64,000 nt of DNA, taken from NCBI GenBank assembly GCA_964362175.1, contig CAYIDD010000005.1:44-64043 (forward strand). Direction: 5' to 3'. Every line of letters begins with the position of its first letter. Positions within the stretch are counted from its first letter, which is position 1. The notes beneath the pieces are model-generated. The model made no database searches and was not told where the DNA came from. It saw only the letters and a program-made list of their open reading frames with translations. Shown piece by piece: positions 2,988 to 41,084 of this stretch. Position numbers and translations under genes: made by a program. The DNA comes from an uncultured Candidatus Saccharibacteria bacterium. GTDB taxonomy: Bacteria > Patescibacteriota > Minisyncoccia > Phycocordibacterales > UBA2100.

Positions 2988-3665
2988 CTAGTTTTGCGAG
3001 TCATTTAGGAGCGTCATTTTGGGCACCTCTATGCCATTCCAAGCGATCCTCAGCGGCACCTCGGTAACCTGCCCGCTTTCCTGATAGAGCTTCACCAGGA
3101 GCACCGACTCGCCCAGTGCTCCTCTAGAAAAAGCAGGTACATCATTCCCCGCAGCGACCGCCAGCAAGACGGAGCGATCCCCGACCATTTCTCGGTCAAG
3201 CATGTGGTTGAAAATATCGAGATAAACAGTTTGGTTGGGATAAATGTCTCGAACAGTCAGACCGTCTTTATTCAGTTGTCCGTGCGTCCAGATAAGAGGC
3301 ATCGGAAAGAAATCGGTGCGTATTTCTCCGCTGTCGGTAATTTTCTCGATGTACGCCTCCACAGCTTTTGCCTTGAACTTACCGCTGTTCTTGATGATGA
3401 CTCTCCCAACATCGAGAAGCGCCATCGGCTCAGAGTCGCCAATCGCTTCGGCATCTCCTTGATTAGTCACTATTGCACCTTCGACCACGATCTTGCTTTT
3501 TTGTGGGCGACGCCTCCACCATTCACTTAGCGGCGGAGACAAAATACCAAGCACGAGAGCAAGAACGATTGCCCAAAATTCTGGAGTGAGATAGAAAGGC
3601 GTCGAGAAATGGGCGGCTGTCTTTTGGAGTGCATCTATCGCTGACTCAAGTTGGTTTGGCTGCAT
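2988..3665 (-). CDS. hypothetical protein with N-terminal transmembrane anchor (element 1)
   Basis: 225 aa ORF. TM segment EFWAIVLALVLGILSPPL. No recognisable catalytic motifs. Confidence 0.5.
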   Translation of the reverse strand: MQPNQLESAIDALQKTAAHFSTPFYLTPEFWAIVLALVLGILSPPLSEWWRRRPQKSKIVVEGAIVTNQGDAEAIGDSEPMALLDVGRVIIKNSGKFKAKAVEAYIEKITDSGEIRTDFFPMPLIWTHGQLNKDGLTVRDIYPNQTVYLDIFNHMLDREMVGDRSVLLAVAAGNDVPAFSRGALGESVLLVKLYQESGQVTEVPLRIAWNGIEVPKMTLLNDSQN

Positions 3666-3863: not shown

Positions 3864-4760
3864 TTATTGAGCAGTCACTGTCACACTCTTACTAAATCCG
3901 TTAGCAGAAAAAGTAATCGTGTGTTGGCCACTGGTTTTGAACTCGTACAGAAATGGGTAATATGACACCGTTTCAGGAACACCGTCCTTATAAATCTTTG
4001 TTACAGCGCCTATGCCCGTCTGGTCGGTTCCCGTTCCCTTTATGAACCTTCGGCAGCTGAAGCAGTCAGGATTAGGTGGATCGGTTGCCTCAATCGTTAC
4101 GTCATACTTAATAACGGCATCCCCGTTATCATTACGTGCAATAAGACCAAGAACAATAGAATTACTATCATCGGGAGTGGCACTGCCTTGGGCTAGTGTT
4201 CCGTCGGGATTTATTTGGTAGTTGTTTGCCTTGTATTGCCGCCCCAGACCCTTACCAGGAGTCGGGCTGAATATTTCAATATTCGCTTTCGATATAGGTA
4301 CGGGCGCAGGCGTCGGCTGTGGTGTTGTGGGAACTGTGGGTGTTGGTTGCGGTGCTGGATTAAGCACGGGCGCGGGAGTCGGTGCAGGATTGGCAGGTTG
4401 AGTTACCACTGGCGGAACTGTCGGCGGCGTAAGCTGTTCCTCCTTGACGGACTCCGCGAGATCCACCGAAAGTACGGCATTAGCTCGAGTGCGCGTCAGA
4501 GGTCCAAAGAAACCTGATACTGGAGTAATATTTTCTCGCGCTTGAAATACTTTTACCGCCTTCAGAGTGAGCGTATAAAAATTTCCTGTTATGGGTCCCG
4601 AATACACCCCTTGATCGGTTAGGAACTCTTGGAGCTCACGTACTTCATCGCCTTTGCTCCCGTACTTTAAATTAGTATCGAAAGAAGCAAAGACAAACTG
4701 CGGGACCAAAACCAGCACGATAGCGAGGAGTTTATAGATATTTTTCATAGCAACCAGCAT
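3864..4760 (-). CDS. secreted protein with peptidoglycan-binding-like domain and Pro/Thr-rich linker (element 1)
   Basis: 298 aa. Signal peptide MKNIYKLLAIVLVLVPQFVFA. YGSKGDEVRELQEFLTDQGVYSGPITGNFYTLTLKAVKVFQ resembles the PG_binding_1 fold. PAPTPAP linker, then a beta-rich C-terminal domain. Confidence 0.6.
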   Translation of the reverse strand: MLVAMKNIYKLLAIVLVLVPQFVFASFDTNLKYGSKGDEVRELQEFLTDQGVYSGPITGNFYTLTLKAVKVFQARENITPVSGFFGPLTRTRANAVLSVDLAESVKEEQLTPPTVPPVVTQPANPAPTPAPVLNPAPQPTPTVPTTPQPTPAPVPISKANIEIFSPTPGKGLGRQYKANNYQINPDGTLAQGSATPDDSNSIVLGLIARNDNGDAVIKYDVTIEATDPPNPDCFSCRRFIKGTGTDQTGIGAVTKIYKDGVPETVSYYPFLYEFKTSGQHTITFSANGFSKSVTVTAQ

Positions 4761-4994: not shown

Positions 4995-5687
4995 ATGATC
5001 GACCAGCTACTAGCACAAAGAGCCGTTTTAGAGGCCCTTGAGGCCAAAATCACGGCCTTGGGCGGCGCTGACAGGCATGTTGGCGATACTACGCTCGAAC
5101 TGTACTTTTGGGACGATTTGGCGGAAAAACATCAAAAACTTTTTAGATCAGCCACACTCGAGGACATCGCCTCGGCAATTACTATCGTTGAGAAAGAGTC
5201 AGCGGGGCGCTTTAAACTTGTATCTATTAAGCCATCTACCGCCACTCGCGACGTATTGAGAGTCGGTATAATGCAAGAAAGTGGCAGACCTATTTTGGAC
5301 GTCTCGAATTTATATTGGGAAGTCCGATACACAGAAAAACTACCCGCGGGAGAAGCTCCCAGTGGTTCGCAAATCTTTTGGCTTACACCTAGGGAGCTAC
5401 ACTCGTTAATTTCAAATGAAAGGCGATCATTCGCGTTTCGGTCAGGCGGTGTTCAATTCCGATTATTGCAGTGGTTTTCCGAACACAAGGATTTAACTAA
5501 AAGCAAAGAGCTAGCGGAGGAGCTCAAGACCACAACACGAACAATTGCCACAGAGATCGGCAAGCTGAAACGTAAAGCTGACGAGGCATTTGGCCTCGAT
5601 GAGGATAATTTCGTCCAAAGCAGTTATGGCGAAGGTTACGGGCCTGGTATCGGAATAAAAATCAAATTGGAAAGAGGTACGTCGTAG
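4995..5687 (+). CDS. hypothetical protein, possible HTH DNA-binding regulator (element 1)
   Basis: 230 aa. C-terminal region SKELAEELKTTTRTIATEIGKLKRK looks helix-turn-helix-like. Upstream of the recombinase, divergent from the secreted-protein operon. Confidence 0.45.
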   Translation: MIDQLLAQRAVLEALEAKITALGGADRHVGDTTLELYFWDDLAEKHQKLFRSATLEDIASAITIVEKESAGRFKLVSIKPSTATRDVLRVGIMQESGRPILDVSNLYWEVRYTEKLPAGEAPSGSQIFWLTPRELHSLISNERRSFAFRSGGVQFRLLQWFSEHKDLTKSKELAEELKTTTRTIATEIGKLKRKADEAFGLDEDNFVQSSYGEGYGPGIGIKIKLERGTS

Positions 5688-5796: not shown

Positions 5797-5988
5797 GTGG
5801 AACAGAGCACCGATGACAAGCTGGCCGAGAGCGCAAGCTCAGAACTTTCTTTTGATGCCTTCAAAAAAGCGCTCGGGTCCGCTGCTCTAAAATACTCGGA
5901 TACGGAAATTGAGCGCATGCGGGCCGTCTGCGATAAGTTTGCGGATGCCTTCTTTGACGGTTGGCTTAAGCGACGAAACGAGCAATAA
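5797..5988 (+). CDS. small acidic hypothetical protein (63 aa) immediately upstream of recombinase 1
   Basis: ORF MEQSTDDKLAESASSEL...; helical and acidic. Position is consistent with a recombination accessory or directionality factor, but this is speculative. Confidence 0.3.
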   Translation: MEQSTDDKLAESASSELSFDAFKKALGSAALKYSDTEIERMRAVCDKFADAFFDGWLKRRNEQ

Positions 5989-6022
5989 TGGGCAGGAAGG
6001 GCTCGACGATTATTACAAAAAC

Positions 6023-7726
6023 ATGGAAAAAAGCACCGAGGGAGAGTATTGCATAATTCACTGTCGAGTGAGTTCAACCAAACAATCTCAGGAGGGTGAG
6101 AGCTTGGATGTGCAAGCGGGCATCTGCCGCGCCATTGCCGTTCAGAATAAATGGCCACTCGCTCATGAGCCGTGGGAAGAGAGCTTCTCAGGGCGTAAAA
6201 GTACTCGGCCAATCTTTGAAGAAGTGTTGGCATTTCTGGATGCACATCCAGGTAAAGTACGCCGCTACATTTTTCGCTCGATTGATCGCTTTACACGCGG
6301 CGGCTCATTCTCATACGAAACGATGAAGCGCGAGCTTACAAAGCGCGGGGTAGCGATGGTGGATAGCTATGGAGTAATTCAAGCTTCAAAAAACACTCTT
6401 GAGGATTTGGGGATTGAGTATGACTGGAGCAGGTACTCACCGAGTGAAATGACAGAGTCGCTTCTCGCGACGAATGCTAAACAGGAGGTTACTGGCATCC
6501 TTACCAGGATGATCGGGCAGTCAATCCGATTAACCAGGCAAGGGTATCGAGCGCGTCGAAGTACAGACGGGTTTAAGAATGAGCGGGTGTTCGTCGAGGG
6601 GAAAAAGAAGGTCATACAGGTTCCCGATAAGGAGCGGGCCCGCTTTTTTATTGCGATGTTTGAATTGCGAGCGCTGGGCCAACTTACAGACCCTGAGATA
6701 GTCGAGAGAGTGAATGCGATGGGATACCGTTCTCCGTATCAAAATAAGTACAATCACGAAAAGACCAAGATCGTCGGGCGGAGAGGCGGAGTTCCGCTGA
6801 CTGTAAAGCAACTCCAGCGCATCATGCGGAATACAATCTATGCTGGAGTCGCATGCGAAAAATGGACAAACTACAAACCAATCCATCAACAGTACGACGG
6901 TCTTGTTACGGTCGAGGTTTTCAATCGAGCCAATAGAGGAGAGTTCGCCATTATGACGGATGAGAGCGCAGAGCTCACAGTCGTTCGCGGCAAATCAAAG
7001 ACGGGCACGGAACGAGTAAGAAATAACCCGCTCTACCCCTTCAAGTTCATTCTGTGTCCTTTGTGCGAGAAACCCAAAACCATGCTTGGCAGCGCACCAC
7101 GCGGCAAGCTGGGTAAAACACATCCCACTTACCACTGCGCTCGTACACACAAGTATTTCGGTATTCCTAAAAAGGACTTTGAGGAGAGTGTGGCGAAGTA
7201 CATCAAGAGTTTGAAGTTCCAACCCGATTTGCTTAATGGCTTGGAGGCAACGTTCCTTAACAAGTATCGTAAACGTGAGAAAGAAATTGTCAGAGCATCA
7301 GGCCAAATACACTCGCACATAGGCGAGCTCGAGGCGCGTCAGGCCTCAAAACTTGAGGCGTTTGAAGCAACAAAGAGTCCCGTGCTCCGAGGAAAGCTGG
7401 AAAGAGAAATAGAAGATCTTGAGGTCCAGATCAAGCAGGCGGGTAAACAACGCCTGAAGATACAGATCACGCGAAATGATATTAAGGCCTTTATGCGAGA
7501 TGCGAAAGCGATAATGGAACACCCCGCTGAAATCCTCCTAAACCCAAAGGATATAAAGGTCCAACAGGAATTATTCGGGTTAGTTTTTGAGAAAATGCCG
7601 ACCTACTCGGAAATTGTTAATGGAACACCTAAATTGTCCTACGCCTTCGCGCTTTCTTCGACATTTACACCAGACAAAAACCAATTGGTGACCCTACCGG
7701 GAATCGAACCCGGATTAACGGCTTGA
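6023..7726 (+). CDS. large serine recombinase (resolvase N-terminal domain + recombinase domain + zinc ribbon + coiled coil)
   Basis: Start at MEKSTEGEYCIIHCRVSSTKQ, where the catalytic Ser lies in the RVSS context. Zinc ribbon CPLC...HCA. The last 38 nt read antisense through tRNA-Glu (tail VTLPGIEPGLTA). Confidence 0.85.
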   Translation: MEKSTEGEYCIIHCRVSSTKQSQEGESLDVQAGICRAIAVQNKWPLAHEPWEESFSGRKSTRPIFEEVLAFLDAHPGKVRRYIFRSIDRFTRGGSFSYETMKRELTKRGVAMVDSYGVIQASKNTLEDLGIEYDWSRYSPSEMTESLLATNAKQEVTGILTRMIGQSIRLTRQGYRARRSTDGFKNERVFVEGKKKVIQVPDKERARFFIAMFELRALGQLTDPEIVERVNAMGYRSPYQNKYNHEKTKIVGRRGGVPLTVKQLQRIMRNTIYAGVACEKWTNYKPIHQQYDGLVTVEVFNRANRGEFAIMTDESAELTVVRGKSKTGTERVRNNPLYPFKFILCPLCEKPKTMLGSAPRGKLGKTHPTYHCARTHKYFGIPKKDFEESVAKYIKSLKFQPDLLNGLEATFLNKYRKREKEIVRASGQIHSHIGELEARQASKLEAFEATKSPVLRGKLEREIEDLEVQIKQAGKQRLKIQITRNDIKAFMRDAKAIMEHPAEILLNPKDIKVQQELFGLVFEKMPTYSEIVNGTPKLSYAFALSSTFTPDKNQLVTLPGIEPGLTA

Positions 7727-22271: not shown

Positions 22272-22862
22272 ATGGGACGAATGGAAACGGAGTCCAAAAA
22301 AAGAGCAAAACGCGTGAACATCGAAAACATTGTTCTCGGCACACTTTCTATCGTTGGCGTTGCAGCTCTCGCCATGGCTGCGCCGAATGCCCTCCAGCTT
22401 CTCAAGCACGTTGATCCCGACTGGGTAAGTAAACGAGATCCGAGACGTAGGTTGCGCGAGACAATATCCCGTATGAAGCGCAAAGGACTCGTCGAGTTCA
22501 AGATGCATAATGGCAGAAATCTTCCGCGCCTCACAAAGAAAGGGGAGGACGAGGCGCGTCGCGTCGCACTCGGAGAAACTATCATCAAAAAACCACTTCG
22601 CTGGGACCGGAAATGGCGCATCGTGATTTTTGACATCCCCGAGAAACGGAAGGGTTTGCGCGAACGCGTGCGCAAACTCGTTTCAAACATGGGATTCTTC
22701 CGGCTCCAAGATAGCGTGTGGGTTTTTCCCTATGATTGCGAAGAGATCGTGGCACTTTTGAAACTCGATTTGAAAATCGGACGTGAACTCATCTATATCA
22801 TTGCCGACGCGATCGAATTCGATACACCACTGCGTCAACACTTCAAACTACCTCTGGACTAA
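22272..22862 (+). CDS. PaaX-family-like transcriptional regulator (wHTH N-terminus + Cas2-like C-terminal domain)
   Basis: 196 aa. C-terminal WRIVIFDIPEKRKGLRERVRKLVSNMGFFRLQDSVWVF matches the Cas2/PaaX-C fold pattern. No CRISPR array nearby. Confidence 0.5.
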   Translation: MGRMETESKKRAKRVNIENIVLGTLSIVGVAALAMAAPNALQLLKHVDPDWVSKRDPRRRLRETISRMKRKGLVEFKMHNGRNLPRLTKKGEDEARRVALGETIIKKPLRWDRKWRIVIFDIPEKRKGLRERVRKLVSNMGFFRLQDSVWVFPYDCEEIVALLKLDLKIGRELIYIIADAIEFDTPLRQHFKLPLD

Positions 22863-22863
22863 A

Positions 22864-22901
22864 TGTTGTTTGTTTCAAGCTATAGCAATTTATAGACAAC
22901 A
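22864..22901. promoter_or_regulatory. second copy of the 38-bp palindrome, 2 bp downstream of the regulator stop
   Basis: tgttgtttgtttcaagctatagcaatttatagacaaca. Shares the tgttgttt...ctatagc...acaaca pattern with 22217-22254. Confidence 0.4.
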
Positions 22902-23193
22902 CTCTGTAATGGGCACAAAACGAAGGGGCCCTTTCCCAAGGGGCCCTGTTGGAGGAGTTTGGTTGCTCACAGCGAGCAACGGTGGCGTCAGCCAAGCTTA
23001 CGCCCGCCCGACGTGTTCGCGAGGGACTCTCGTCCCTGTGCGCCGCGTGCTCAGACGGCCGTGATGTTGTAGGCAGCCGCGATCGCGAACATCGACGACG
23101 ATGTCGTTCTCAAGGGAATACCCTCCTTCCGCGCCTTCGACCGGAAGCTTTCCGGTGGCGCTACCGCAATTGTACCTCGCTACAAATCGTTTA

Positions 23194-29255: not shown

Positions 29256-30550
29256 AGAAACTTTCGATGTTCCAGACCATTTTGCTCGTCGTATTTGGCG
29301 GGCTCGCTATCGCGGGCGTCTTGGTGTTCTCACTCGCTATCGGAGGCGGAGAGACCAACACCGTCGGTGCCGTACGGATATGGGGGACGCTCGATCAGGG
29401 GGCATTCGCGACCGTCCTTCGGCAAGCCGCTGAAAATAATGCTCAGCTGGCTCAGGTGACGTACGAGCAAAAAGATCCCGCGACCTACGACAACGAGCTC
29501 ACCAATGCGCTTGCCACCGGCTCAGGACCGGATCTTTTTGTCATGCGGCAGGACTATGCGCTGAAGGACGCCGGAAGGGTTACGGTCATTCCGCTCTCTG
29601 CCCTTTCCCAATCTCAATTCGAAGGTACGTTCATCGAAGCATCAAGTCCGTTTCTGACGCCAAGCGGCGTCGTAGGCGTTCCGCTCTTTGCCGATCCGCT
29701 CGTACTCTATTGGAACAAAGACGTGCTCGCTTCCGGCGGGTTTGCGCAGCCGCCGAAATTCTGGGACGAACTCTTCACCATGTCCCAAAAAATGACGACC
29801 AAAGATGACACGGGCTCCATCGTTCGGGCCACGATCGCCCTCGGTGAATATCGGAACATACGTAATGCAAAGGATATTCTTGCGACACTCATTCTCCAGG
29901 CGGGCGGTTCTATAACCGCGCGCGACACCACGGGGCGTTTGACGCCGGCACTCACACCCCGCACAGGGAATACGACGCAGGCTACCGCCTCCGCGTTGCG
30001 CTTCTATACCGAATTTGCAGATCCTTCCAAAAACGATTATTCATGGAATCGGTCGCTCCCCGAGGCGCAAAAAGCGTTCGCGGCGGGCGATCTCGCCCTC
30101 TACATAGGCTACGCGAGCGAAGACCCGTTCATCGCGCGCACGAATCCGAATCTTAATTTCGCGATAGCGCCCCTGCCGCAGATCCGGAATTCCCAATCTG
30201 CCCGCAACACCGCACGTGTCTACGCACTCGCCGCGTCGCGGACAAGCACAAACCCCAATGCCGCGATCACCGCCGCATTTTTGCTGGTTTCCGCGGACAT
30301 CGGCAAAGCACTCTCAACCGCTCTCGGGATCCCCAGTGCGCGACGCGACATCATAAACCAGCCTGCTACCGGCAACGACGATCTTTTCAACAAACAGGCC
30401 ATCCTCGCGCATTCCTGGCTTGACCCCGACCCGATCAGGACAGCCGAACTCTTTCGCGCTATGATTGAGAACACGACGAGCGGATCGCAGCTCGTCACCG
30501 AAGCGGTCCAGCGCGGTGATCAGGAATTGGGCCAGATCCTCGGCTTATGA
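29252..30550 (+). CDS. ABC transporter substrate-binding protein (family 1, sugar-type), membrane-anchored
   Basis: 432 aa. N-terminal TM/signal, then the two-lobed SBP pattern (GSGPDLFVM..., ALYIGYASE...). Confidence 0.65.
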   Translation: MKKLSMFQTILLVVFGGLAIAGVLVFSLAIGGGETNTVGAVRIWGTLDQGAFATVLRQAAENNAQLAQVTYEQKDPATYDNELTNALATGSGPDLFVMRQDYALKDAGRVTVIPLSALSQSQFEGTFIEASSPFLTPSGVVGVPLFADPLVLYWNKDVLASGGFAQPPKFWDELFTMSQKMTTKDDTGSIVRATIALGEYRNIRNAKDILATLILQAGGSITARDTTGRLTPALTPRTGNTTQATASALRFYTEFADPSKNDYSWNRSLPEAQKAFAAGDLALYIGYASEDPFIARTNPNLNFAIAPLPQIRNSQSARNTARVYALAASRTSTNPNAAITAAFLLVSADIGKALSTALGIPSARRDIINQPATGNDDLFNKQAILAHSWLDPDPIRTAELFRAMIENTTSGSQLVTEAVQRGDQELGQILGL

Positions 30551-30912
30551 AAAATTTCTTACATTCTGTACATCGAATGTGCACGGTCTTTACCGGCGCG
30601 GCGATCGTTTTTGCGGCAGGTATCGTGCAGGCGGAAACCGGTCTGGGAAATCCGCTGAACAAGAGCTTTAGCACCATACCGGCGTTTCTTGCGGGTGCTC
30701 TGAAGGTGCTCGTCATCGTGGCGCTGCCGCTCATCACGCTTTTCGTCGTCGTTGCGGGGTTCATGTTTATCAAGGCACGCGGTAATCCCACAGAACTCAC
30801 AAAGGCAAAGGAGAACTTCGTCTACGTCATCATCGGCGCTCTGCTCATCCTTGGCGCGTGGCTCATCGCGACCCTCATCGGGGGAACGGTCTCTCAGTTG
30901 GTGGGAAATTGA
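30547..30912 (+). CDS. small secreted two-TM protein, paralog 1 of tandem array (VirB2/TrbC-pilin-like topology)
   Basis: 121 aa. Signal peptide, then two hydrophobic helices separated by a short charged loop (KARGNPTELTKAKE). Confidence 0.5.
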   Translation: MKNFLHSVHRMCTVFTGAAIVFAAGIVQAETGLGNPLNKSFSTIPAFLAGALKVLVIVALPLITLFVVVAGFMFIKARGNPTELTKAKENFVYVIIGALLILGAWLIATLIGGTVSQLVGN

Positions 30913-30913
30913 T

Positions 30914-31303
30914 ATGCGTACGACACGCATCATGCCAGCGTTGTTGTTTCTCCTGATACCAGCCGCTGCTTTTGCCGCGCCCCGCAATTTTCAGGAGCTC
31001 TCGAACAGTATTGTGTTCCTGCTCGACAATGCAACGGCGGTTTTGGTGGTAGCCGGTATCGCCGTCTACTTTTACGGGATTTCAAGCAACATCCTGAAAT
31101 TCAGTGACGAGGGGGGTGAAAAAATGAAAGCATATTTCTTCTGGGGGATCATCGTGCTTTTCGTGATGGTTTCTATTTGGGGGATATTGCGCCTGCTTCA
31201 GGATACCTTGTTCGGTGGGAACCAGTTCGGCGCAACTTCTCCGCTACCACAGCAGACATCGGGAGACGTTTTCAGGTCGTCCAACATGCGTTTCCCCGAG
31301 TGA
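30914..31303 (+). CDS. small secreted two-TM protein, paralog 2
   Basis: Start MRTTRIMPALLFLLIPAAAFA (signal). C-terminal motif FVMVSIWGILRLLQDTLF shared with paralog 4. Confidence 0.55.
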   Translation: MRTTRIMPALLFLLIPAAAFAAPRNFQELSNSIVFLLDNATAVLVVAGIAVYFYGISSNILKFSDEGGEKMKAYFFWGIIVLFVMVSIWGILRLLQDTLFGGNQFGATSPLPQQTSGDVFRSSNMRFPE

Positions 31304-31319
31304 CTTCAATAATTCGCGT

Positions 31320-31715
31320 ATGAATTATCTTTCCCGCGCCACCCTCACCATGTCGCTTGTTACGGCGGCAGCGCCCGCGCTCGCAAACGCCCAGACCATC
31401 TCGCAGGCGGTGGGGCTTTTTAATGTGTTCGTGGGGCTCATGCTGACCGCGGCGCTTCTCACCTACGGTGTCGGGATGGTTGTGTGGTGGGTTCGTCTCG
31501 GAACGTGGCCTACATACAGGACCGAGGCGATAAAGATCATGGAGTGGTCGGTCGTCATGCTGTTGGTTCTCGTGGTGCTTTTGGCCATCGTCCAATTTTT
31601 CCAGAATCATCCGCGCGCGGCCGGCTATACCGTTTCTATCGTCGTACTAGTTCTTATCGTGTGGGCAATTCTTGTCATGGCGGCAAAAGGTGGGAAAAAA
31701 GAGAAAGAGCACTAG
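31320..31715 (+). CDS. small secreted two-TM protein, paralog 3
   Basis: Start MNYLSRATLTMSLVTAAAPALANA (signal). Two TM helices. KKEKEH tail. Confidence 0.5.
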   Translation: MNYLSRATLTMSLVTAAAPALANAQTISQAVGLFNVFVGLMLTAALLTYGVGMVVWWVRLGTWPTYRTEAIKIMEWSVVMLLVLVVLLAIVQFFQNHPRAAGYTVSIVVLVLIVWAILVMAAKGGKKEKEH

Positions 31716-31748
31716 ACCCCGCTCGAAGAGAGCGCCCGCAGGGGCCGA

Positions 31749-31803
31749 ATATCGGCTACTGCCGATATGAGGCGAGTCTGACACGCACAAGCTTGTGCGT
31801 GTC
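31749..31803. other. two adjacent perfect hairpins downstream of paralog 3
   Basis: atatcggc-tact-gccgatat (31749-31768) and gacacgcacaag/cttgtgcgtgtc (31780-31803, 12-bp stem). No T-run follows, so the terminator role is uncertain. Confidence 0.3.
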
Positions 31804-31943
31804 ACGGAAGTTGACGTGGGGGGTGCCTCCCGGCGGGGTCGGTTATCCACACGGAGGCGGTACCATCTATTGTATTTTCAGCCCCTGTCTATACCATTGA
31901 GGTACTTAGAAAATAAAGGGGAAATCCCAAAAAACAACAGATT

Positions 31944-32303
31944 ATGCGGAAAATTATCGTTTCTTCGGGGCTGGTCGCGGCAGTGGTGGCGCTTCCTGCT
32001 CTTGCGAGCGCAGCTACTCTTCTCGACACGCTTGCGCTCGCCAACACCTTCCTGAACGCCATGATTGGCCTCTTCATCACGCTCGCCATCGTAGTTTTCT
32101 TCTGGGGCCTCATCAAGTACCTCACCACGGCGGGGGAGGACAAGGCAGCGGGGTTGTCCATTATGTTCATGGGCGTCGTTGCCATCTTCGTCATGGTCTC
32201 AATCTGGGGCATCATCCGCCTCCTCCAAAGTACCTTCAAGGTTACCTCGACAGATCCCGTCATCCCGAAAGGCATCCAGATAAATACGGGCGTCTATCAG
32301 TAA
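31944..32303 (+). CDS. small secreted two-TM protein, paralog 4
   Basis: Signal MRKIIVSSGLVAAVVALPALASA. C-terminal FVMVSIWGIIRLLQSTF. Confidence 0.55.
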   Translation: MRKIIVSSGLVAAVVALPALASAATLLDTLALANTFLNAMIGLFITLAIVVFFWGLIKYLTTAGEDKAAGLSIMFMGVVAIFVMVSIWGIIRLLQSTFKVTSTDPVIPKGIQINTGVYQ

Positions 32304-32351
32304 TAAGATCGACTGGGCTCAAGCACGGGCTCTTCGCATTGCCCACCTATT

Positions 32352-32663
32352 ATGAATGCCCTCGGAAACCTGATGGACAAGTTTTGGTCTGCCATCATTA
32401 GTCCGGCGATCCTAATAGTGCTCGCGCTCGGCTTCCTTCTCTTCGTGTACGGACTCGTCGAATTTCTCTGGAATCTTAATACGGGGGGAGACAATAAAGA
32501 GGGGAAGCAGCATATGATGTGGGGCATCGTGGGCATCCTCGTCATGTTTTCCGTCTACGGCATCCTTGATCTCCTCGACAACACCTTCAATCTCGATTTC
32601 AGGAATCCCGATGTAAGTCGCGCGCAAAATATCAAGGTGCCATCAAATTTCGGTACTCAGTGA
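32352..32663 (+). CDS. small two-TM protein, paralog 5
   Basis: 103 aa. MMWGIVGILVMFSVYGILDLLDNTF is homologous to the VMVSIWGI(L/I)RLLQ motif. Confidence 0.5.
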   Translation: MNALGNLMDKFWSAIISPAILIVLALGFLLFVYGLVEFLWNLNTGGDNKEGKQHMMWGIVGILVMFSVYGILDLLDNTFNLDFRNPDVSRAQNIKVPSNFGTQ

Positions 32664-33750: not shown

Positions 33751-33963
33751 TGGTGTCGGGTATCGTATTCACGACGGACCTACTTTCGACACTTTCCGAG
33801 CGTGGGGCTTATCTTCGAGCTCAGTAAACAATTCGAGCTTGGAAACTATGATTTAGTCCGCCTAACTATAGACCATTGGAACGCGCTCATCCAAGAAATG
33901 GAACAATGGCGAGGCATTACTAACGGGACAGATTTTGCCTTATCTTCCGAATCTCGCGTTTAA
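33751..33963 (+). pseudogene. start-less fragment homologous to the 3' end of large serine recombinase 2 (C-terminal tail variant)
   Basis: Frame open from the stop at 33748-50, with no start codon. Translation ...VSYSRRTYFRHFPSVGLIFELSKQFELGNYDLVRLTIDHWNALIQEMEQWRGITNGTDFALSSESRV*. Recombinase 2 has ...IAYSRGMGFGIARMGLIFELSKQFELGNYALVRPVGFEPTTVRLRGDCSTN*. Confidence 0.45.
33804..33862. repeat. 59-bp direct repeat (55/59 identical to 40959-41017), left boundary of integrated element 2
   Basis: ggggcttatCttcgagctcagtaaacaattcgagcttggaaaCtatgAtttAgtccgcc versus attR ggggcttatAttcgagctcagtaaacaattcgagcttggaaaTtatgCtttGgtccgcc. 32-bp identical core. The last ~9 nt correspond to the tRNA-Lys 3' end. 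Confidence 0.6.
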
Positions 33964-36448
33964 ACGACTCAGGCAGTTCTATAACTGATAGGTCTACAGT
34001 TGAGAGCCATTGAGTCGCTTGCTCCTCGTTAAGAGAAGGATTGCCAACCATCTTAGACAGTTCTGTGGCTACATGTCTGCTGAAGCCCATATTGATAAAT
34101 GAGACTTGCGTCATTTCTGATACTCCGAACTCAACCCACGTTCTAATATCTGGTATTTGTGCTAACAGTTCAGTTCTACCTGTTTGCTCGAAGAAATATC
34201 GGAGGGTATCTAAATAACACGTGATGTATTTCGCGAATCCAAAACGAATATCGTCTTCTATATTACGCATGGTATCTCGGATAACTACAGGAAGACGAGG
34301 GCTTCTGCCATGCTCCTGTAAATACTTGAAGTAATCCACGATTATCCTTGGCAAGGGGTAGCCGCGCATCCAAACAACCGCTAGCAACGCCTCTCGATAT
34401 GAGCTTATACTTTTTGTGTTTGGAGGTGCGAGATGTGTATTAACTCGACTGACAATTCGGTTGTAATCGCTCACTGCCGTTTGAGCGGCGACAGAAGGCG
34501 GCGGCAACAATTCTTCTACGTTCTCGTGTCCTTGGAAGTAATCATAAAGTCGTTTTACAGCAAGAGGACTAATGCCTGGATTTCGTTGAAAGATTTCCCG
34601 TGGCAACTGGACGTTTTCCCTGATTTTCCCTAACAGACTGATAAGTTCGTCCGAGAATATGCTGCTGTAATCGCCATCTAAGTATTTAAGAAAAAAGTAG
34701 CTCAACGCGTACTCCATATTCGCATCTCGAATATTGGCATCTTCGGCATGCTCGGCGACAAATTCAAGGAATGATGACCCCTCTCCAGTGATTTCAACAA
34801 GTGATTTCTTTATCTCATAACGACGTTCGCCCCAGAGAGGCTTATGCGTCCATTCTTCAGGTTCTATACAGAAAATATTTCCTTGAAAATCTTTGGAGAG
34901 TCTGCCTGCTCGTCCCGCCAAGTTCCAAAAATCCGCTTCTGACATCGGATTGCCACGACCACGAGATGGATTGGTAATGAAAATCGCTTTTGCCGACAGA
35001 TTCACTCCCTCTAGTAAAGTTGATGTGCAGACTAAATATTTAATAGCTCCCTCTCGGAACAATCTTTCAATTTCACGTCTAACCAAAAGCGGCATATTTC
35101 CGTAATGAAAAGCGACACCATAGGGCAATACTTGCGGTAGTGCATAGTGCGGATGAATAAGTCTTTTTGAGAGGTCTATCAACTCATCGAATGACGACTC
35201 ATCCTTTTCAACACCCATTTGTCTCAATTCATCTGCAATGCTTTGTGCGATTCTCTCAGCACTAGCTGCTCCAGATGCATATACCAAATTTCCACCGTCC
35301 TTACTCAGTAAGATTGGTAGCTTGCTACATTTCTTAGCAATTGTACCAAGAGTTTGTTCAAGTACGATTTTTCCTAAAGGAATAGATTGGGTCTTTAAGC
35401 AAAGCGTAATGTCCCATTCTTTGGGTTTACGAGGTACTTTAGAGAGCCAAATGAGGTTTTGGTTTACCGCCACATAATCCGTTAGAATGCTTACGCCCGT
35501 ATCTGAGTTCGATATTCCTAAAAGTATCTCAGGATTTCGGGAGAATGCGCTACAGAAGAGCACTCGCGAGGACGGATTAATACGCTGAACCTGCTCCACT
35601 TTCTCCTGCAGTAAAATACCACGTTGACCATCTCCTATCTTTTGTGCCTCATCAACAATTAGCAGGTCGACGGAATAGTCTGGATTATCCGTGAGAAACC
35701 AATGCAGTCTCTCCTGCGTGAAGACAAAGAGGTGATTTGAGTTCTTGTATTGGACTGGGGGCAATTTCGGGACTGAGCTTATGTAGACATTCTTTTCTAG
35801 ACCATATTCTGTGAGACTTTCATTGAAGCGGTCTTCCACTTCGTTAATAAGAGCACGAGTTGGGACGATATATACGATATGTGATGTTCTATCTGATTCT
35901 GACAAGGCTTTTGCGACAATGAGACTAAGCACGAACGACTTTCCAGCCGATGTCGGCGCGGAAGCACTTACTGTATTCTGCTCTCGTGCGGCAATATAAA
36001 GTTGTCTCTGAAATTTATTCAAATACCTAGTGTCGTTAACAATCTCAACTGTATGCAGTTGGTCGCGCCACATTTTCTCGACGAGAAGAGGACGCGGAAT
36101 GTCCTCCTCATAATTTTCGGGAATGTATTCTTTTTCTATAGCAAGATTAATCGCGGGCGCATTTGTCAGTTTCCCAAAAATAATCGCTGCTGCAACGTGA
36201 TATGACGGGTCAACCGCAGTCGTGAGACAGTATTGTGCGATGCGTAATGCCGCATCCTGACACTCCGCATCGTTTGCTTGCGCTAAAATGCTTCCGCAGA
36301 GAAGCATGTAGTTCCAGTCAATGTTCGGCTGCTGGTGGTCGTCAGAAAATCTTGTTGGCAAACTACCGAGAACGGAGGCATGGAGTATACTGCTAAATTC
36401 GTTTCTGAATTCTTGCAGTCCAAGTATTTTGCGTGCCAATTTGTCCAT
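33920..36448 (-). CDS. superfamily 2 DExH-box helicase (Ski2-like; HamB-like candidate)
   Basis: 842 aa. Motif I APTSAGKS, Ia IVPTRAL, II LLIVDEAQ, VI NLAGRAGR. Characteristic YGVAFHYGNMP...LVCTSTLLEGVNLSA RecA2 region. Confidence 0.8.
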   Translation of the reverse strand: MDKLARKILGLQEFRNEFSSILHASVLGSLPTRFSDDHQQPNIDWNYMLLCGSILAQANDAECQDAALRIAQYCLTTAVDPSYHVAAAIIFGKLTNAPAINLAIEKEYIPENYEEDIPRPLLVEKMWRDQLHTVEIVNDTRYLNKFQRQLYIAAREQNTVSASAPTSAGKSFVLSLIVAKALSESDRTSHIVYIVPTRALINEVEDRFNESLTEYGLEKNVYISSVPKLPPVQYKNSNHLFVFTQERLHWFLTDNPDYSVDLLIVDEAQKIGDGQRGILLQEKVEQVQRINPSSRVLFCSAFSRNPEILLGISNSDTGVSILTDYVAVNQNLIWLSKVPRKPKEWDITLCLKTQSIPLGKIVLEQTLGTIAKKCSKLPILLSKDGGNLVYASGAASAERIAQSIADELRQMGVEKDESSFDELIDLSKRLIHPHYALPQVLPYGVAFHYGNMPLLVRREIERLFREGAIKYLVCTSTLLEGVNLSAKAIFITNPSRGRGNPMSEADFWNLAGRAGRLSKDFQGNIFCIEPEEWTHKPLWGERRYEIKKSLVEITGEGSSFLEFVAEHAEDANIRDANMEYALSYFFLKYLDGDYSSIFSDELISLLGKIRENVQLPREIFQRNPGISPLAVKRLYDYFQGHENVEELLPPPSVAAQTAVSDYNRIVSRVNTHLAPPNTKSISSYREALLAVVWMRGYPLPRIIVDYFKYLQEHGRSPRLPVVIRDTMRNIEDDIRFGFAKYITCYLDTLRYFFEQTGRTELLAQIPDIRTWVEFGVSEMTQVSFINMGFSRHVATELSKMVGNPSLNEEQATQWLSTVDLSVIELPESFKREIRKIRQNLSR

Positions 36449-36457
36449 AAGGCATAC

Positions 36458-37423
36458 TCAACGCTCTAAGGCGCGAGTTAAGGCTTCGCGAAATTTTGCT
36501 ACCGAAGGCAGAGGAAGGATAAATAAGTGTATAACTATGGTCTCAACTTTTTGACTCTTTATTTCGGCATGGATTTTTTCAATCCATACGCTTAGGCTTT
36601 CGACTATGGCCTTTTTAACAGCTTCTACGTTGCCCGTATTTTGGACGGATGGGTAATGTTCGAAATCAAAACCAACGAGCCCAATTCCACGATAATTCAC
36701 TCGATTCGCTAAAGGTGAATCTTTTTTAAGATAACGTATCAGTGCCGACTCCAAATTCTCATCAGCAATATTTTCTGCGAGGTGGTCATGTGCCAACTGC
36801 AAATCTCTTTCTCGGCGTTCTGCGCCACCATCTACAAGAAGATAGGCGGATAAATCTTTAATGCACTCTTTAATGGCTGTTGCGGGATTTTGCTGGAGTT
36901 TTGACTCACACCAATACAGACATAAAATTGGTTCTTTACCCTCGTCATTCTCAATGGACAAGTGAATACCGTCAGAGCCGTGCACGGGCATTTCTGAGTT
37001 TGTCTTGAGAGGCATTTTGCACAGCAGTTGAGGGTACTTGAGGAATTCCTGAGCCATAAGATACAGGAGCAATTCACCACCCTCGCCAGATATACCCGTG
37101 GACTTAAATAACCCCCGTGCTGTCTTTTGTAATGCTGCAACTTTTCGGGTGGTGTTGTGCTTTGTATCGTAAGCTTTTGCTTCTGCGATTTTTGAGCGAG
37201 GAATTGCAAAATCAGCAGCGTTTGTAGCTAGGAAATCTGCCAAATCGTCAATCGGGGGCATGCCGTTCCCGTCCAATTCCAAAACGTAGCAGTGCGATGT
37301 TGCCCTTGTCGCCCCGACAACAACATTTACTTCTATTTCGGAGAAATATCGAGATAATTCAGCCTCACTGGTACTAAGTAAGCCACCCACTTCTCCTTTG
37401 AGGTCGTTGGATGACTTATTCAT
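36458..37423 (-). CDS. hypothetical protein with PD-(D/E)xK-like motif (HamA/DUF1837-like candidate)
   Basis: 321 aa, 9 bp upstream of the helicase. ...VHGSDGIHLSIENDEGKEPILCLYWCESKL... fits D...ExK nuclease spacing. GELLLYLMAQEFL segment. Size and gene order match Hachiman hamA-hamB. Confidence 0.4.
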   Translation of the reverse strand: MNKSSNDLKGEVGGLLSTSEAELSRYFSEIEVNVVVGATRATSHCYVLELDGNGMPPIDDLADFLATNAADFAIPRSKIAEAKAYDTKHNTTRKVAALQKTARGLFKSTGISGEGGELLLYLMAQEFLKYPQLLCKMPLKTNSEMPVHGSDGIHLSIENDEGKEPILCLYWCESKLQQNPATAIKECIKDLSAYLLVDGGAERRERDLQLAHDHLAENIADENLESALIRYLKKDSPLANRVNYRGIGLVGFDFEHYPSVQNTGNVEAVKKAIVESLSVWIEKIHAEIKSQKVETIVIHLFILPLPSVAKFREALTRALER

Positions 37424-37477
37424 GAATAAAGCCTACTCCAAACCACGAATATAAACAAATGGCAACAAAGTCGGCTC

Positions 37478-37648
37478 TCAATCAAATTTCTTTGAGAAAG
37501 TGGCGACGTTTTGTTTCTTTCTGTGAAAATAAACTTCTAAGGCTAACTCGGCCATGTCGTAAAGTGCCTTCCTGAGCTCATCAATTTCTTGGTCAGAGAG
37601 TTTGTTGCTATCGGGTATTAACTCGCGGCATTTTTCTAGAGAAAGCAT
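37478..37648 (-). CDS. small hypothetical helical protein (56 aa)
   Basis: ORF 37478-37732. Start placed at MLSLEKCRELIP to avoid overlap with the upstream gene. Confidence 0.3.
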   Translation of the reverse strand: MLSLEKCRELIPDSNKLSDQEIDELRKALYDMAELALEVYFHRKKQNVATFSKKFD

Positions 37649-37650: not shown

Positions 37651-37944
37651 CTATACTGTGAAGAAGACAGAGGCAGAGCCTAAAACAATCAAGATATTCG
37701 CCACCGCGTATATCGTAATTACATGCCACCAATTGTCGCCTGACTTAAGGGATTGGTACGAGGCAATAATTCCGGTAATAGCTGAAACAAGAGCCGTCAG
37801 AATCATCGCGTAGTACGAAATGCCAGCCACGACGATTTTCAGAGCGTCCTTAAGGTACGGCCATTCGTTTACAGACGAGAGAATGGACACGAATAAAATA
37901 CAGAGAGCCAAAGAGAACAAGCTTATTTTTAGGTATTTGTTCAT
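37651..37944 (-). CDS. small membrane protein (3 TM, 97 aa)
   Basis: MNKYLKISLFSLALCILFVSILS... has three hydrophobic helices. Holin-like size and topology, but this is speculative. Confidence 0.45.
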   Translation of the reverse strand: MNKYLKISLFSLALCILFVSILSSVNEWPYLKDALKIVVAGISYYAMILTALVSAITGIIASYQSLKSGDNWWHVITIYAVANILIVLGSASVFFTV

Positions 37945-37974: not shown

Positions 37975-38190
37975 CTAAATTCCCTGAGCGTCGAGAAAGT
38001 CAGGCTTAGCATTATCTTGCTGCTGCTCGTAAGACTTTTCTTCCAAGTGAGCGCAAAGACTCGGATTGCGCGAACAATCTATCACAGTTGGTTTCGCTCT
38101 ATTGCTAGGGTCTTCCAGCAAACCCCCGAAGGTAAACCACAGAATAAAGAGCCCGAAGAGTACGCCTGCTATGAGTTTCAAATTCTCCAT
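37975..38190 (-). CDS. small secreted protein with signal peptide and two Cys
   Basis: 71 aa. MENLKLIAGVLFGLFILWFTFGG signal. Immediately downstream of structured repeat copy B. Confidence 0.45.
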   Translation of the reverse strand: MENLKLIAGVLFGLFILWFTFGGLLEDPSNRAKPTVIDCSRNPSLCAHLEEKSYEQQQDNAKPDFLDAQGI

Positions 38191-38207
38191 AAAAAAACGC
38201 TAGCTAA

Positions 38208-38397
38208 TAATGCTAGCGGGAGTGCAACACTAAACCCCGCGCCAGCTAAGCCTTGCGGCCCCACACCCCTTTCGGGATATGGCTCATGGAAGAGTCGCTG
38301 AACGCGGGGTTCAGTACCTTCCATGAGTCTTTTCGACCATGCCACCAGACGTTGGTGGGTTAGGTCGCGCCCTTACGGGCTGATATTGGGTGTGTAA
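38208..38397. repeat. structured repeat element, copy B (homolog of 4779-4943)
   Basis: Perfect 10-bp stem ctcatggaag (38283-38292) / cttccatgag (38318-38327) encloses ...gctgaacgcggggttcag.... Upstream aaccccgcg is complementary to cgcggggtt. Shares aacactaa(a/g)ccccgcgccagcta, gccttgcggccccacaccc and tattgggtRtgtgtaa blocks with copy A. Confidence 0.6.
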
Positions 38398-38651: not shown

Positions 38652-38892
38652 AAAGCATTCTTTTTGTGCTATATCCTAAAATAGCTTGACTTAGAGCCAT
38701 ATTTTTGATAGGATTAGAGCATAAGATTATTAGCTAATAGGTTCATTTGAAATGGGATGATTTCTCTCGAAAAAACGCGAGAGCTCCTAAATGAAGCATC
38801 ATCTGTACAACTCCAAGATAAAGAAGTTGCGGCATTCCGCGATTCCTGCGCGGCATTAGCTCGTATTTTTGTGGACACGGTTTTAGAAGAAC

Positions 38893-39291
38893 TTGGGAGC
38901 CAACCCAAGGCTAATTAAACACGCAAATATGAGCAAACCAATTACAGGTCTATTCGTTCCAAAAGCAATACTGTTAGATGGTAATTTAGGTTCATCACAA
39001 AAACTGCTTTTTTCGGAGATTCATCACCTTTCTGGAAGTGAAAGAGGATGTTACGCCGGAAATAATCATCTCGGAGAAATGATTGGATTATCTAGCGCAC
39101 AAGTAAGCAGAATTATTTCTGGGTTACGGCGGTCAGGCTATATCCGATGGGAACTCGCTGAAGAAGAAGTGACGCGACGAAGAATGTACTCCACTCTCGA
39201 AAGAGATGACGAGGACGCAGAAGTTAATGATGTAGCAAGGGAATACGCGGATAGGGAGAGGGACTTCGACTTTTCCGATGAGGGGGTATAA
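38893..39291 (+). CDS. small HTH (winged-helix-like) DNA-binding protein with acidic tail (element 2)
   Basis: 132 aa. ...HLGEMIGLSSAQVSRIISGLRRSGYIRWE... looks like helix-turn-helix. Acidic C-terminus DDEDAEVND. Confidence 0.5.
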   Translation: MGANPRLIKHANMSKPITGLFVPKAILLDGNLGSSQKLLFSEIHHLSGSERGCYAGNNHLGEMIGLSSAQVSRIISGLRRSGYIRWELAEEEVTRRRMYSTLERDDEDAEVNDVAREYADRERDFDFSDEGV

Positions 39292-39498
39292 GCAGGACCG
39301 CTCAACGAAGATAATAGTAGAGACAATAGTTAAATAATACTCTCACTACTCCCAGCTTCGCTGGGAACGAACGATAGTTCGTTAGTGGCACTACTAAATC
39401 TTTAGTCTTAACCAACTCGATATTATCTATCCCTGTACAGCTCTACAAACAATGGCCGCGGCTAGGATTATCCAGAAGTGTTATTCTTAAAGTACGTT

Positions 39499-41073
39499 AT
39501 GAAAGCAATCATCTACACTCGTGTCAGCAGCGATGAACAAATCAAAGGCACTTCTCTTGCAGACCAAGAGCGTCGGTGTACTGCCTACTGCGAGGAAAAC
39601 GGATACGAGGTACAGGCTGTGTTTCGCGAGGAAGGCGCGTCAGCAAAAACAGCAGACCGGAAGGAGCTCTTTAGCGCAATGGAGTTCTGTCGTACACACA
39701 AGGGCGAGATAGATTTCTTTGTGGTCTTCAAGCTCGACCGCTTTGCACGGAATGTTTCCGACCACTTCGGCGTCAGGAAAAGTCTCAAAGAGTACGGAGT
39801 TGAGTTGAGGTCTGTGTCGGAGCAATTAGGCGATGAACCGTCTGAGAAGTTTATGGAAGCTGTTATCGCGGCGGCCTCTGAGTACGATAATGGCGTTCGT
39901 ACACAACGAGCCACTAATGGCATGGTGGCAAAGATACGCGAGGGTATATGGCCATGGAAAGCCCCCTTGGGCTATGTTCCCAATCCGAAGCGGGTATTAG
40001 GAGGAAAGAAAAATATGCCTGATGTTCCGGACCCTGCTACTTTCTCGATACTACAAACAGCTTTCAGAGAGTACGCACAGGGTGAACATACTCCAATAAG
40101 TCTTGGACGCAGACTTGATGCGCTTGGATTAGCTGCGATTAGAGGCAAGCAAGCGTCATCTCAGTTCATTCAGCAGTTATTAGTGGAGCGACGCATAAAG
40201 TTTTATGCGGGGAAGCTGATTACAGACCTTAATGGAGAAAATGAGGTGCAGGGCTTACACCAGCCGATGATAACTGAGACCGAATGTGCGAGCATGATTG
40301 GATATATCCATGGCAAGAAAAAGCCAGTTCAACGCCATGCATTAGTTAACCCTAATTTCCCTCTAAAGGGCGGTACAGTCCTTTGTGGCGCATGTACGAA
40401 GCCTCTGACGGGTAGTACAACGCGAGGTCGAAGTGGTTTGCACCCTTACTACCACTGCTACAACAAGCAGTGTGAGATGTACGGAAAGATTACTCAGAAA
40501 GATGTCCTAGAAAACGATTTCCTGACCTTACTAAATAAAGTTGCTCCTTCTGGAAAGTTTATTGCCTATTTCAAGAAAGCCGTGATTGATGAGTGGGAGA
40601 ATCGAGTCGGACAGATAAAGGATGTACACAAGGAATACGAGGAGAGCCGTCGTAAACTTAACGAAAGTCTAGACCGCATAAAACAGCTTCTTGAAGACGG
40701 CACTTACAGCCGCGCAGAGTATCTAGAGCGTAAGCAGAAGATTGAAAACGGATTGATGACAACGGGAATATCTGAGAACGAGTCGCACATTGAACAAATG
40801 GACATTGAGGCATTGCTTACTAAAGCAACAGAGTTCCTTACCTCGTTGGGCGAGCACTGGAAGAAAATGCCACCGACTGTACGGCCAAGATTCCAAAAGC
40901 TGGTCTATCCAGACGGAATTGCTTACTCTCGCGGTATGGGATTTGGAATCGCACGAATGGGGCTTATATTCGAGCTCAGTAAACAATTCGAGCTTGGAAA
41001 TTATGCTTTGGTCCGCCCAGTAGGATTCGAACCTACGACCGTTCGCTTAAGAGGCGACTGCTCTACCAACTGA
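39499..41073 (+). CDS. large serine recombinase (element 2)
   Basis: Start MKAIIYTRVSSDEQ, with the catalytic Ser in the resolvase domain. Zinc ribbon CGACTKPLTG...HCYNKQC. Coiled coil. The last ~65 nt read antisense through tRNA-Lys (tail VGFEPTTVRLRGDCSTN). Confidence 0.85.
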   Translation: MKAIIYTRVSSDEQIKGTSLADQERRCTAYCEENGYEVQAVFREEGASAKTADRKELFSAMEFCRTHKGEIDFFVVFKLDRFARNVSDHFGVRKSLKEYGVELRSVSEQLGDEPSEKFMEAVIAAASEYDNGVRTQRATNGMVAKIREGIWPWKAPLGYVPNPKRVLGGKKNMPDVPDPATFSILQTAFREYAQGEHTPISLGRRLDALGLAAIRGKQASSQFIQQLLVERRIKFYAGKLITDLNGENEVQGLHQPMITETECASMIGYIHGKKKPVQRHALVNPNFPLKGGTVLCGACTKPLTGSTTRGRSGLHPYYHCYNKQCEMYGKITQKDVLENDFLTLLNKVAPSGKFIAYFKKAVIDEWENRVGQIKDVHKEYEESRRKLNESLDRIKQLLEDGTYSRAEYLERKQKIENGLMTTGISENESHIEQMDIEALLTKATEFLTSLGEHWKKMPPTVRPRFQKLVYPDGIAYSRGMGFGIARMGLIFELSKQFELGNYALVRPVGFEPTTVRLRGDCSTN

Positions 41074-41084
41074 GCTATGGGCGG
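41009..41084 (-). tRNA. tRNA-Lys (anticodon CTT), CCA encoded
   Basis: 76 nt. D-arm gctc-agttggtag-agc. Anticodon loop ctCTTaa. T-arm gtagg-ttcgaat-cctac. 3' ACCA present. Confidence 0.8.

Follow-up and report, generated by a model that had tools for sequence, protein, structure and literature searches.

The described systems closest to the locus considered here are Hachiman of type I, AbpAB and Pez-Ham. In E. coli Hachiman, the D-E(X)K motif of the nuclease HamA is essential, and the HamA E138A/K140A mutant loses defence (Cell 2024; PMC12278908). AbpAB consists of a nuclease and a Ski2-like helicase and responds to DNA damage; in its AbpA subunit, a Cap4-like nuclease at the N-terminus is joined to a HamA domain without catalytic activity (PMC12278908). 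In the Pez-Ham arrangement of Streptococcus thermophilus, an upstream PezAT toxin–antitoxin (TA) pair tunes the expression of hamAB (PMC13064477). The locus itself is a pair of open reading frames (ORFs) encoding proteins of 321 and 842 aa in a 64,000-nucleotide stretch of the contig CAYIDD010000005.1 (hereafter, the window), which an earlier note had proposed to be a Hachiman-like cassette on a small mobile element. The pair is best regarded, with a probability of about 0.9, as a canonical two-gene (type I) Hachiman system carried as cargo of a 7,155-bp serine-recombinase island (element 2) inserted at tRNA-Lys(CTT). The same island bears a copy of the LOOT RNA, which appears to head the cargo operon. 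A literature search on Hachiman in Patescibacteria found no relevant report.

The HamA–HamB Pair

The two ORFs adjoin each other on one strand and are separated by a 9-bp gap. Their coordinates, sizes, strand and spacing, as given by the earlier note, are exact to the base in the ORF list, and the motif strings it quoted are found in the translations: HGSDGIH and LYWCESK in the 321-aa protein, and APTSAGKS, (V)DEAQ(K) and AGRAGR in the 842-aa protein. The proposed Hachiman architecture, hamA followed by hamB with the small protein first, is borne out by the sizes and by the domain content found with Pfam and PADLOC. For the domain calls, a chance match is excluded by E-values of 1e-55 to 1e-262.

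The 321-aa protein belongs to the HamA family. Pfam PF08878 (HamA/DUF1837) matches it over positions 1-230 of 230 (E=4.7e-55, 187 bits vs. a cut-off of 25), and PADLOC HamA1 covers 305 of 314 profile positions (E=3.2e-102). A large protein collection holds 303 homologs at E<1e-10, nearly all of them about 320–340 aa long with PF08878; they include the HamA cluster of Bacillus cereus, which shares 40% identity with the window protein. The residues of HGSDGIH...LYWCESK that make up the catalytic triad, D151, E173 and K175, form invariant columns in a 39-sequence alignment of the HamA family and match the D-E(X)K motif of E. coli HamA. Since sequence searches of the PDB with HamA were empty or weak (the 39-sequence profile had 9wh1_A as its sole match, and a weak one), a fold comparison was required. 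The AlphaFold (AF2) model, with a predicted local distance difference test (pLDDT) of 88.6 and a predicted TM-score (pTM) of 0.89, was compared with the PDB by Foldseek; at E<=0.001, only 8zue_A and 8vx9_A were retrieved, both of them HamA chains, with a probability of 1.00. On the strength of the profiles and the model, the protein is assigned as a full-length HamA with an intact nuclease triad.

The 842-aa protein is matched by PADLOC HamB1 almost from end to end (E=3.4e-262, 870 bits, residues 3-839 vs. profile positions 5-860 of 864). The match spans N- and C-terminal parts beyond the helicase core, which would imply that the N-terminal HamA-interaction domain is present as well; Pfam finds DEAD and Helicase_C. 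Motif I is APTSAGKS (K170), motif II is DEAQ (D266/E267) and motif VI is AGRAGR. Four HamBs agree fully in motifs I (GKS), II and VI, save for an alternation of Q and H in motif II. Family membership and the intact catalytic motifs of the pair are direct observations, and the protein can be assigned, from its profile match, as a full-length HamB with intact helicase motifs I, II and VI. The housekeeping equivalogs of NCBIfam score far lower, namely Hel308 at 60.8 bits vs. a cut-off of 1200 and PRK01172 at 86.5 vs. 891, so that the helicase groups with HamB, as the earlier note had supposed, and not with Hel308/Lhr. Two outcomes had been named there as fatal to the Hachiman proposal: a 321-aa protein without DUF1837 or nuclease-fold similarity, and a helicase of the housekeeping Lhr/Hel308 kind. 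The profile searches and the structure prediction suggested in the same place gave neither outcome; the former returned DUF1837, HamA1 and HamB1, and the latter a model resembling solved HamA chains.

In the PDB, the neighbours of the 842-aa protein are Brr2, Hel308, Ski2 and HamB; the best match is 9wh1_B (E=3e-47), while E. coli HamB, 8vx9_B, is found at E=1e-21. Under the name ‘DNA polymerase theta (helicase domain only)’, chain B of 9wh1, 9whk and 9whu, 853 aa in length, was deposited together with a chain named HamA. Chain B is evidently a HamB that name-based searches would miss.

The Island and Its Integration Site

The stretch containing hamAB has a GC content of about 44% vs. about 56% in the flanks. 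It lies between 60-nt imperfect direct repeats, 56/60 identical and 7,155 bp apart, which are sharply bounded, with no homology past the repeat. The right-hand repeat lies inside the 3′ end of the recombinase gene, whose product matches Resolvase (E=6.5e-31) and Zn_ribbon_recom in Pfam and the integrase family phrog_95 (E=1.6e-64). A syntenic Kaiserbacteria contig (L113) has the ortholog of the flanking methyltransferase (80% nucleotide identity), then 25 nt, and then tRNA-Lys(CTT); the recombinase, LOOT and hamAB are all missing from this junction. The island boundaries and the empty site are observed directly, and because L113 holds the empty site, the comparison of the two contigs demonstrates that 33.8-41.0 kb is an insertion. 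The direct repeats and the empty site in a related genome substantiate the earlier proposal that the pair is carried on a serine-recombinase element. The features are collected in Table 1.

Table 1. Features of the hamAB island (element 2) and of the second island (element 1) in the window
Feature	Position	Strand	Description
hamB	33920..36448	-	842-aa SF2 Ski2-like helicase, predicted sensor/motor subunit; PADLOC HamB1
hamA	36458..37423	-	321-aa DUF1837 PD-(D/E)xK nuclease, predicted effector subunit; catalytic D151, E173, K175
hamA-proximal non-coding region	37424..37470	-	…ATTCGTGGTTTGGAGTAGGCTT…ATG; GGAG Shine-Dalgarno-like motif
ORF-C	37478..37648	-	56-aa helical orphan from ATG; 84 aa from TTG at 37732
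ORF-B	37651..37944	-	97-aa orphan, ~3 predicted transmembrane segments
ORF-A	37975..38190	-	71-aa orphan, N-terminal hydrophobic/transmembrane segment
Terminator-like hairpin	38191..38218	-	CGCUAGC-AUUAUUA-GCUAGCG then U7; ends at ORF-A ATG
LOOT RNA	38228..38366	-	RF03000 part 38248-38366; conserved 3' tail to 38228; heads cargo operon
LOOT pseudoknot 3' strand	38230..38246	-	GCUGG-CGCGGGGUUUAG; in 3' tail
LOOT pseudoknot 5' strand	38297..38314	-	CUGAACCCCGCG-U-UCAGC, apical loop of LOOT hairpin
ORF-D	38757..38918	+	53-aa helical orphan heading divergent HTH/recombinase module; weak ORF-C paralog
Winged-HTH protein	38893..39291	+	132 aa from TTG; 120 aa from ATG at 38929
Large serine recombinase	39478..41073	+	531 aa, N-terminal YTRVSSDEQ
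Left repeat (attL-type)	33803..33862	.	33803-33862; ends in 7-9-nt copy of tRNA-Lys 3' end (…GTCCGCC)
Right repeat (attR-type)	40958..41017	.	40958-41017; overlaps last 9 nt of tRNA-Lys
tRNA-Lys(CTT)	41009..41084	-	integration target
Element 1	2426-7703		same design as hamAB island; 19-nt direct repeats 2426-2444, 7685-7703
Element 1 cargo	2988..3665		225-aa unknown
Element 1 cargo	3864..4760		PG_binding_1 protein
Element 1 LOOT RNA	4784-4922	-	Rfam part 4804-4922
Element 1 HTH_11 protein	4995..5687		
Element 1 serine recombinase	5909..7726		605 aa, runs into tRNA-Glu

The 3′ end of the recombinase gene crosses the right repeat into the antisense strand of tRNA-Lys. Both serine recombinase ORFs of the window cross an att-type repeat in this way and end in the antisense of the target tRNA (40958-41073 and 7685-7726). 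As they end within the tRNA past the repeat, excision would swap the C-terminal tail of the recombinase; for element 2, the tail …LVRPVGFEPTTVRLRGDCSTN would become …LVRLTIDHWNALIQEMEQWRGITNGTDFALSSESRV (regions 40958-41073 and 33802-33963). A recombinase remnant to the left of the island, hinted at by a tblastn match (33% over 98 aa), was rejected, the signal coming from the 60-nt repeat alone; the sequence upstream of the repeat contains stop codons and shows no similarity.

The winged-helix-turn-helix (winged-HTH) protein encoded next to the recombinase matches HTH_36 and other HTH families of Pfam, as well as phrog_2880 (E=1.8e-13) and phrog_270 (E=3e-10). The PHROG matches cover only the N-terminal ~100 of ~400 positions, i.e., the DNA-binding part of phage replication initiators, and the protein may act as a regulator, or it may be what remains of a Rep protein or a minimal form of one.

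The host chromosome can be assigned to Candidatus Kaiserbacteria (Patescibacteria, candidate phyla radiation, CPR) from groundwater: GyrA of the window shares 91-92% identity with its counterparts in named Candidatus Kaiserbacteria metagenome-assembled genomes, and the exact HamA is recorded only in 0.1-um-fraction assemblies from the Hainich groundwater well H43 and in one NCBI contig. Several other features of the window and its relatives may be mentioned. Five small membrane or secreted ORFs at 30547-32663 (+), upstream of tRNA-Leu and the methyltransferase, are conserved in related Kaiserbacteria contigs, and for the first of them, the gene calls of L001 and L113 give a match to T4SS_pilin/TrbC. 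At 7992-8815, L113 has an MNT/HepT-like TA pair (NTP_transf_2 and HepT-like) upstream of gyrA, where the window is only partially similar. A further GC dip, to about 49%, lies at ~21000-23000 of the window. Finally, no known defence system was found by PADLOC in the cargo of element 1.

Small ORFs and the hamA-Proximal Region

Three co-directional ORFs (ORF-A, ORF-B and ORF-C) are tightly packed upstream of hamA. None of them, nor the divergent ORF-D, belongs to a family in Pfam, PADLOC, PHROGs or NCBIfam, and tblastn found no homolog of ORF-A, ORF-B or ORF-C in the nearest HamAB loci. ORF-C and ORF-D are 37% identical over 38 aa (E=0.005), and a profile built on them matched only itself among 5.8 billion proteins; both open with M-[LI]-S-L-E-K-x-R-E-L. 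On these three grounds, the small ORFs were rejected as Hachiman components. The earlier note had placed them outside canonical Hachiman, which agrees with their orphan status, whereas the co-occurrence with the pair that it wished to see examined is not found, as they do not accompany HamAB in the nearest loci. Its description of them as members of the same operon holds for their co-directional position upstream; against it stands a terminator-like hairpin followed by U7 (38218..38191) before ORF-A, the first small ORF.

About 40 nt before the hamA start are nearly identical in the window and in two metagenomic HamAB islands, L006 (~2930-2976) and L009 (~3140-3186), although the HamA proteins are only 68-69% identical. 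This suggests that the hamAB module brings along translation or regulatory signals of its own close to hamA; the conserved 40 nt may be a ribosome-binding site, an operator or a promoter travelling with hamAB. In view of the terminator-like hairpin before ORF-A and the conserved ~40 nt before hamA, the operon is a putative one. Generic promoter and terminator scans of the hamAB island gave background level.

LOOT RNA: Occurrence and Context

The LOOT RNA motif (Rfam RF03000) goes back to Weinberg et al. 2017 (PMC5737381), and some of the context and structure given below may already have been noted in that description. The two copies in the window, in the hamAB island and in element 1, score 78.2 and 77.4 bits, respectively, vs. 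a gathering threshold of 46.4, and cover model positions 1-121 of 121. They share a conserved 3′ extension and very stable folds (z -5 to -7). LOOT stands at the equivalent site in L006 (1924-2039) and L009 (1656-1773), between the divergent recombinase module and the cargo. Rfam files LOOT as a small RNA (sRNA) gene of unknown function, whereas here it lies directly upstream of co-directional mobile-element cargo.

A pattern derived from four copies (two from the window, L006 and L009) was used to survey species-representative genomes and IMG/VR. It matches 95 genome stretches, almost all from Patescibacteria (Saccharibacteria, Paceibacterota, Kaiserbacteria, Magasanikbacteria and others), and three IMG/VR contigs. 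A co-directional ORF begins no more than 110 nt past LOOT in 75 of 97 loci, with a mode of 36-48 nt after the tail. The genes downstream are very diverse and mostly unannotated, e.g., DUF4352, SNase, PG-binding and Cap15, while the upstream neighbours are mobile-element genes, including recombinases, terminases, ParB, methyltransferases and Abi-type genes. Among loci with 3 kb or more of sequence upstream, the raw count of those with a divergent recombinase within 4 kb is 23 of 59.

HamAB was found near LOOT in none of the 95 genome loci (0/95), by which LOOT as a Hachiman-specific element is ruled out; because of this, LOOT is taken to be a feature of the mobilome and not a part of Hachiman. 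A conserved protein partner upstream of LOOT was likewise ruled out, the neighbours forming many small unrelated clusters, and no positional conservation pointing to a promoter at a fixed distance upstream was seen in 97 loci.

LOOT RNA: Pseudoknot and a Possible Switch

Outside the Rfam model, the 3′ tail of LOOT appears to form a strongly covarying pseudoknot with the apical loop of the LOOT hairpin. In a MAFFT alignment of 98 copies (A9, columns 83-100/171-188), 88% of the cells of this long-range helix are paired, and sliding the partner lowers the value to 37-52%; in 10 of 17 pairs, both positions vary, and compensatory cells number 192, the slid controls having 2-35. Pairing in the core reaches 100%, where up to six pair types occur and G-U pairs are numerous. 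The search pattern itself fixed the tail GGG and part of the 5′ motifs, but the covarying columns lie in unspecified gaps of the pattern, and alignment A9 was not fitted to the structure. A local hairpin at the pseudoknot site is poorly supported (61% paired in the same set).

The LOOT tail also tends to pair downstream (-16.0 vs. -10.5 and -10.9 kcal/mol in controls, p=4e-15). In the hamAB island, the tail (38230..38246) can pair alternatively with 38212-38222 (CUCCCGCUAGC), overlapping the 5′ arm of the terminator. This alternative hairpin (-18.5 kcal/mol) would sequester the 5′ arm of the terminator-like hairpin, for which -11.2 kcal/mol and z=-2.8 were obtained, and in the predicted folds of the window copy, availability of the pseudoknot partner leaves the terminator free to form. 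Such a layout resembles an attenuator. A terminator after LOOT was ruled out as a general feature, since a run of T5+ follows LOOT in just 17 of 99 loci, and the terminator model accordingly applies to the window copy and not to the LOOT family.

It is conceivable, though less likely than not, that LOOT, instead of being a free-standing sRNA, is a cis-acting pseudoknotted leader of island and prophage backbones in CPR/Patescibacteria that gates their cargo, and that, here, competition between the pseudoknot (38314-38297/38246-38230) and an antiterminator controls the terminator of the Hachiman operon. An operon ending in a self-toxic Hachiman would then be off by default, and the signal for release might be a ligand, a protein, or the state of the element or of the infection.

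Proposed Mode of Action

If the pair works like Hachiman of E. coli, HamA and HamB would associate as a heterodimer, and HamB would hold HamA in check for as long as the complex surveys intact double-stranded DNA (PMC12278908, PMC11914072). HamB would engage 3′ single-stranded ends or damaged DNA arising in phage replication, its ATP-driven helicase activity would free or activate HamA, and the freed HamA would degrade DNA indiscriminately so that the infection is aborted. Two elements probably govern expression, namely the conserved hamA-proximal region and the LOOT leader farther upstream; in the latter, the pseudoknot and the alternative hairpin might, hypothetically, gate terminator read-through before the operon.

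Alternative Interpretations

In every respect that can be addressed from sequence, the locus agrees with two-gene Hachiman, and the alternatives were weighed against this assignment. That the 842-aa protein might be a housekeeping Hel308/Lhr repair helicase, the 321-aa protein an unrelated neighbour and the pair no defence system at all is suggested by the RecA-like core that HamB has in common with Hel308, Brr2 and Ski2, as well as by the weak NCBIfam matches; the chance of this is close to nil, since the full-length HamB1 match and the low Hel308 score effectively refute it, the partner is unambiguously a HamA, and the pair sits on a horizontally acquired low-GC island missing from a close relative. 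An extended Hachiman can hardly be credited either. It might be of PADLOC type II, which presumably has a third gene, or be AbpAB-like, or use the three co-directional small ORFs between LOOT and hamA as partners. Type II profiles do match (HamA2 at 308 bits, HamB2 at 796 bits), but type I profiles outscore them for both proteins; the HamA is single-domain with an active triad, unlike AbpA, and the small ORFs lack both family matches and counterparts in related loci. A decaying, non-functional cassette that is passively carried would be compatible with the streamlining of CPR genomes and with an island GC 12 points off that of the host. This is very unlikely: hamA and hamB are full length vs. 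their profiles, all catalytic and ATPase motifs are intact, the 9-bp spacing and the conserved upstream region are kept, and identical proteins recur in several independent assemblies.

A different view is that HamAB mainly serves the island itself, whether by keeping it in place (an addiction or stabilisation module) or by attacking rival mobile elements and plasmids. Its closest relatives all reside on small integrative islands with differing recombinases, published HamAB breaks down plasmid DNA in vitro and is toxic upon DNA damage (PMC12278908), and the adjacent TA system in Streptococcus tunes Hachiman expression, limiting its fitness cost (PMC13064477). Although sequence leaves such a role indistinguishable from phage defence, it seems rather unlikely, given that every experimentally tested Hachiman protects against phages (PMC12278908, PMC11914072) and that defence systems in general are carried on mobile elements, which implies no other function.

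Several observations weigh against a canonical Hachiman on a serine-recombinase island. At 60 nt, the attL/attR repeat exceeds the length usual for large serine integrases, which makes the recombination mechanism uncertain. Motif II of HamB reads DEAQ instead of DExH; this is considered no defect because DEAQ and DEAH alternate inside the clade. The single-sequence search of the PDB with HamA gave no match, and the TM-scores of the fold matches are modest (0.46-0.54, with 12-16% identity over the fold alignment), because the solved HamAs are distant. Finally, a joint transcript of LOOT, the small ORFs and hamAB is putative.

Significance

The genomes of Kaiserbacteria are very small, and the group is commonly regarded as poor in defence machinery. 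The identification of Hachiman here is routine, the locus being one more ordinary representative of a known system, from an under-sampled lineage; it nevertheless appears to document an intact abortive-infection-type system in a Kaiserbacteria genome, and its route of arrival can be read from the 7.2-kb island, which targets a tRNA gene and whose site is empty in a relative. A less expected and more valuable result than the Hachiman call is the LOOT leader with its pseudoknot, the function of LOOT having been unassigned since 2017. LOOT gains a taxonomic range (CPR) and a genomic niche, in that it directly precedes variable cargo of mobile elements; its structure is extended by a covarying pseudoknot, and a testable switch model is available.

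Comparison with Known Systems

With Hachiman of type I from Bacillus cereus and E. coli ECOR31 (PDB 8VX9, 8ZUE), the locus has in common the hamA-hamB order on one strand with tight spacing and the combination of a DUF1837 D-E(X)K HamA with a Ski2-like superfamily 2 (SF2) HamB of about 850 aa. It differs from these systems in its CPR host, the DEAQ form of motif II, the serine-recombinase island and the LOOT leader. AbpAB is similar in that it, too, is a pair of a nuclease and a Ski2-like helicase, but the window HamA, unlike AbpA, is a 321-aa single-domain protein with an intact triad. Pez-Ham resembles the locus in having accessory genes ahead of hamAB and provides a precedent for regulated Hachiman expression; in contrast to Pez-Ham, the upstream region in the window contains orphan small ORFs without a TA or HTH signature and an RNA leader.

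The closest relatives are L006 and L009, whose HamA is 68-69% and HamB 68% identical to the window proteins. All three have the same layout of a recombinase module, a divergent LOOT, variable small genes and hamA-hamB, together with the conserved hamA-proximal 40 nt. The genes between LOOT and hamA are unrelated, encoding proteins of 191 aa and 79 aa in L006 and comprising small ORFs and an IS1595 transposase in L009. Both of these islands use tyrosine integrases (in L006, along with an HTH_17 excisionase), whereas the window island has a serine recombinase. Of the next closest HamAB loci (45-50% identity), L010 lies beside a serine recombinase, and L012 adjoins a type I restriction-modification system. 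The earlier note had called a defence system on a small serine-recombinase element notable; the element is confirmed, but rarity is not, as carriage on small integrative or defence islands appears to be the rule for this Hachiman clade. The differing recombinases, serine here and tyrosine in L006 and L009, indicate a modular exchange of the LOOT-to-hamAB cargo between element backbones.

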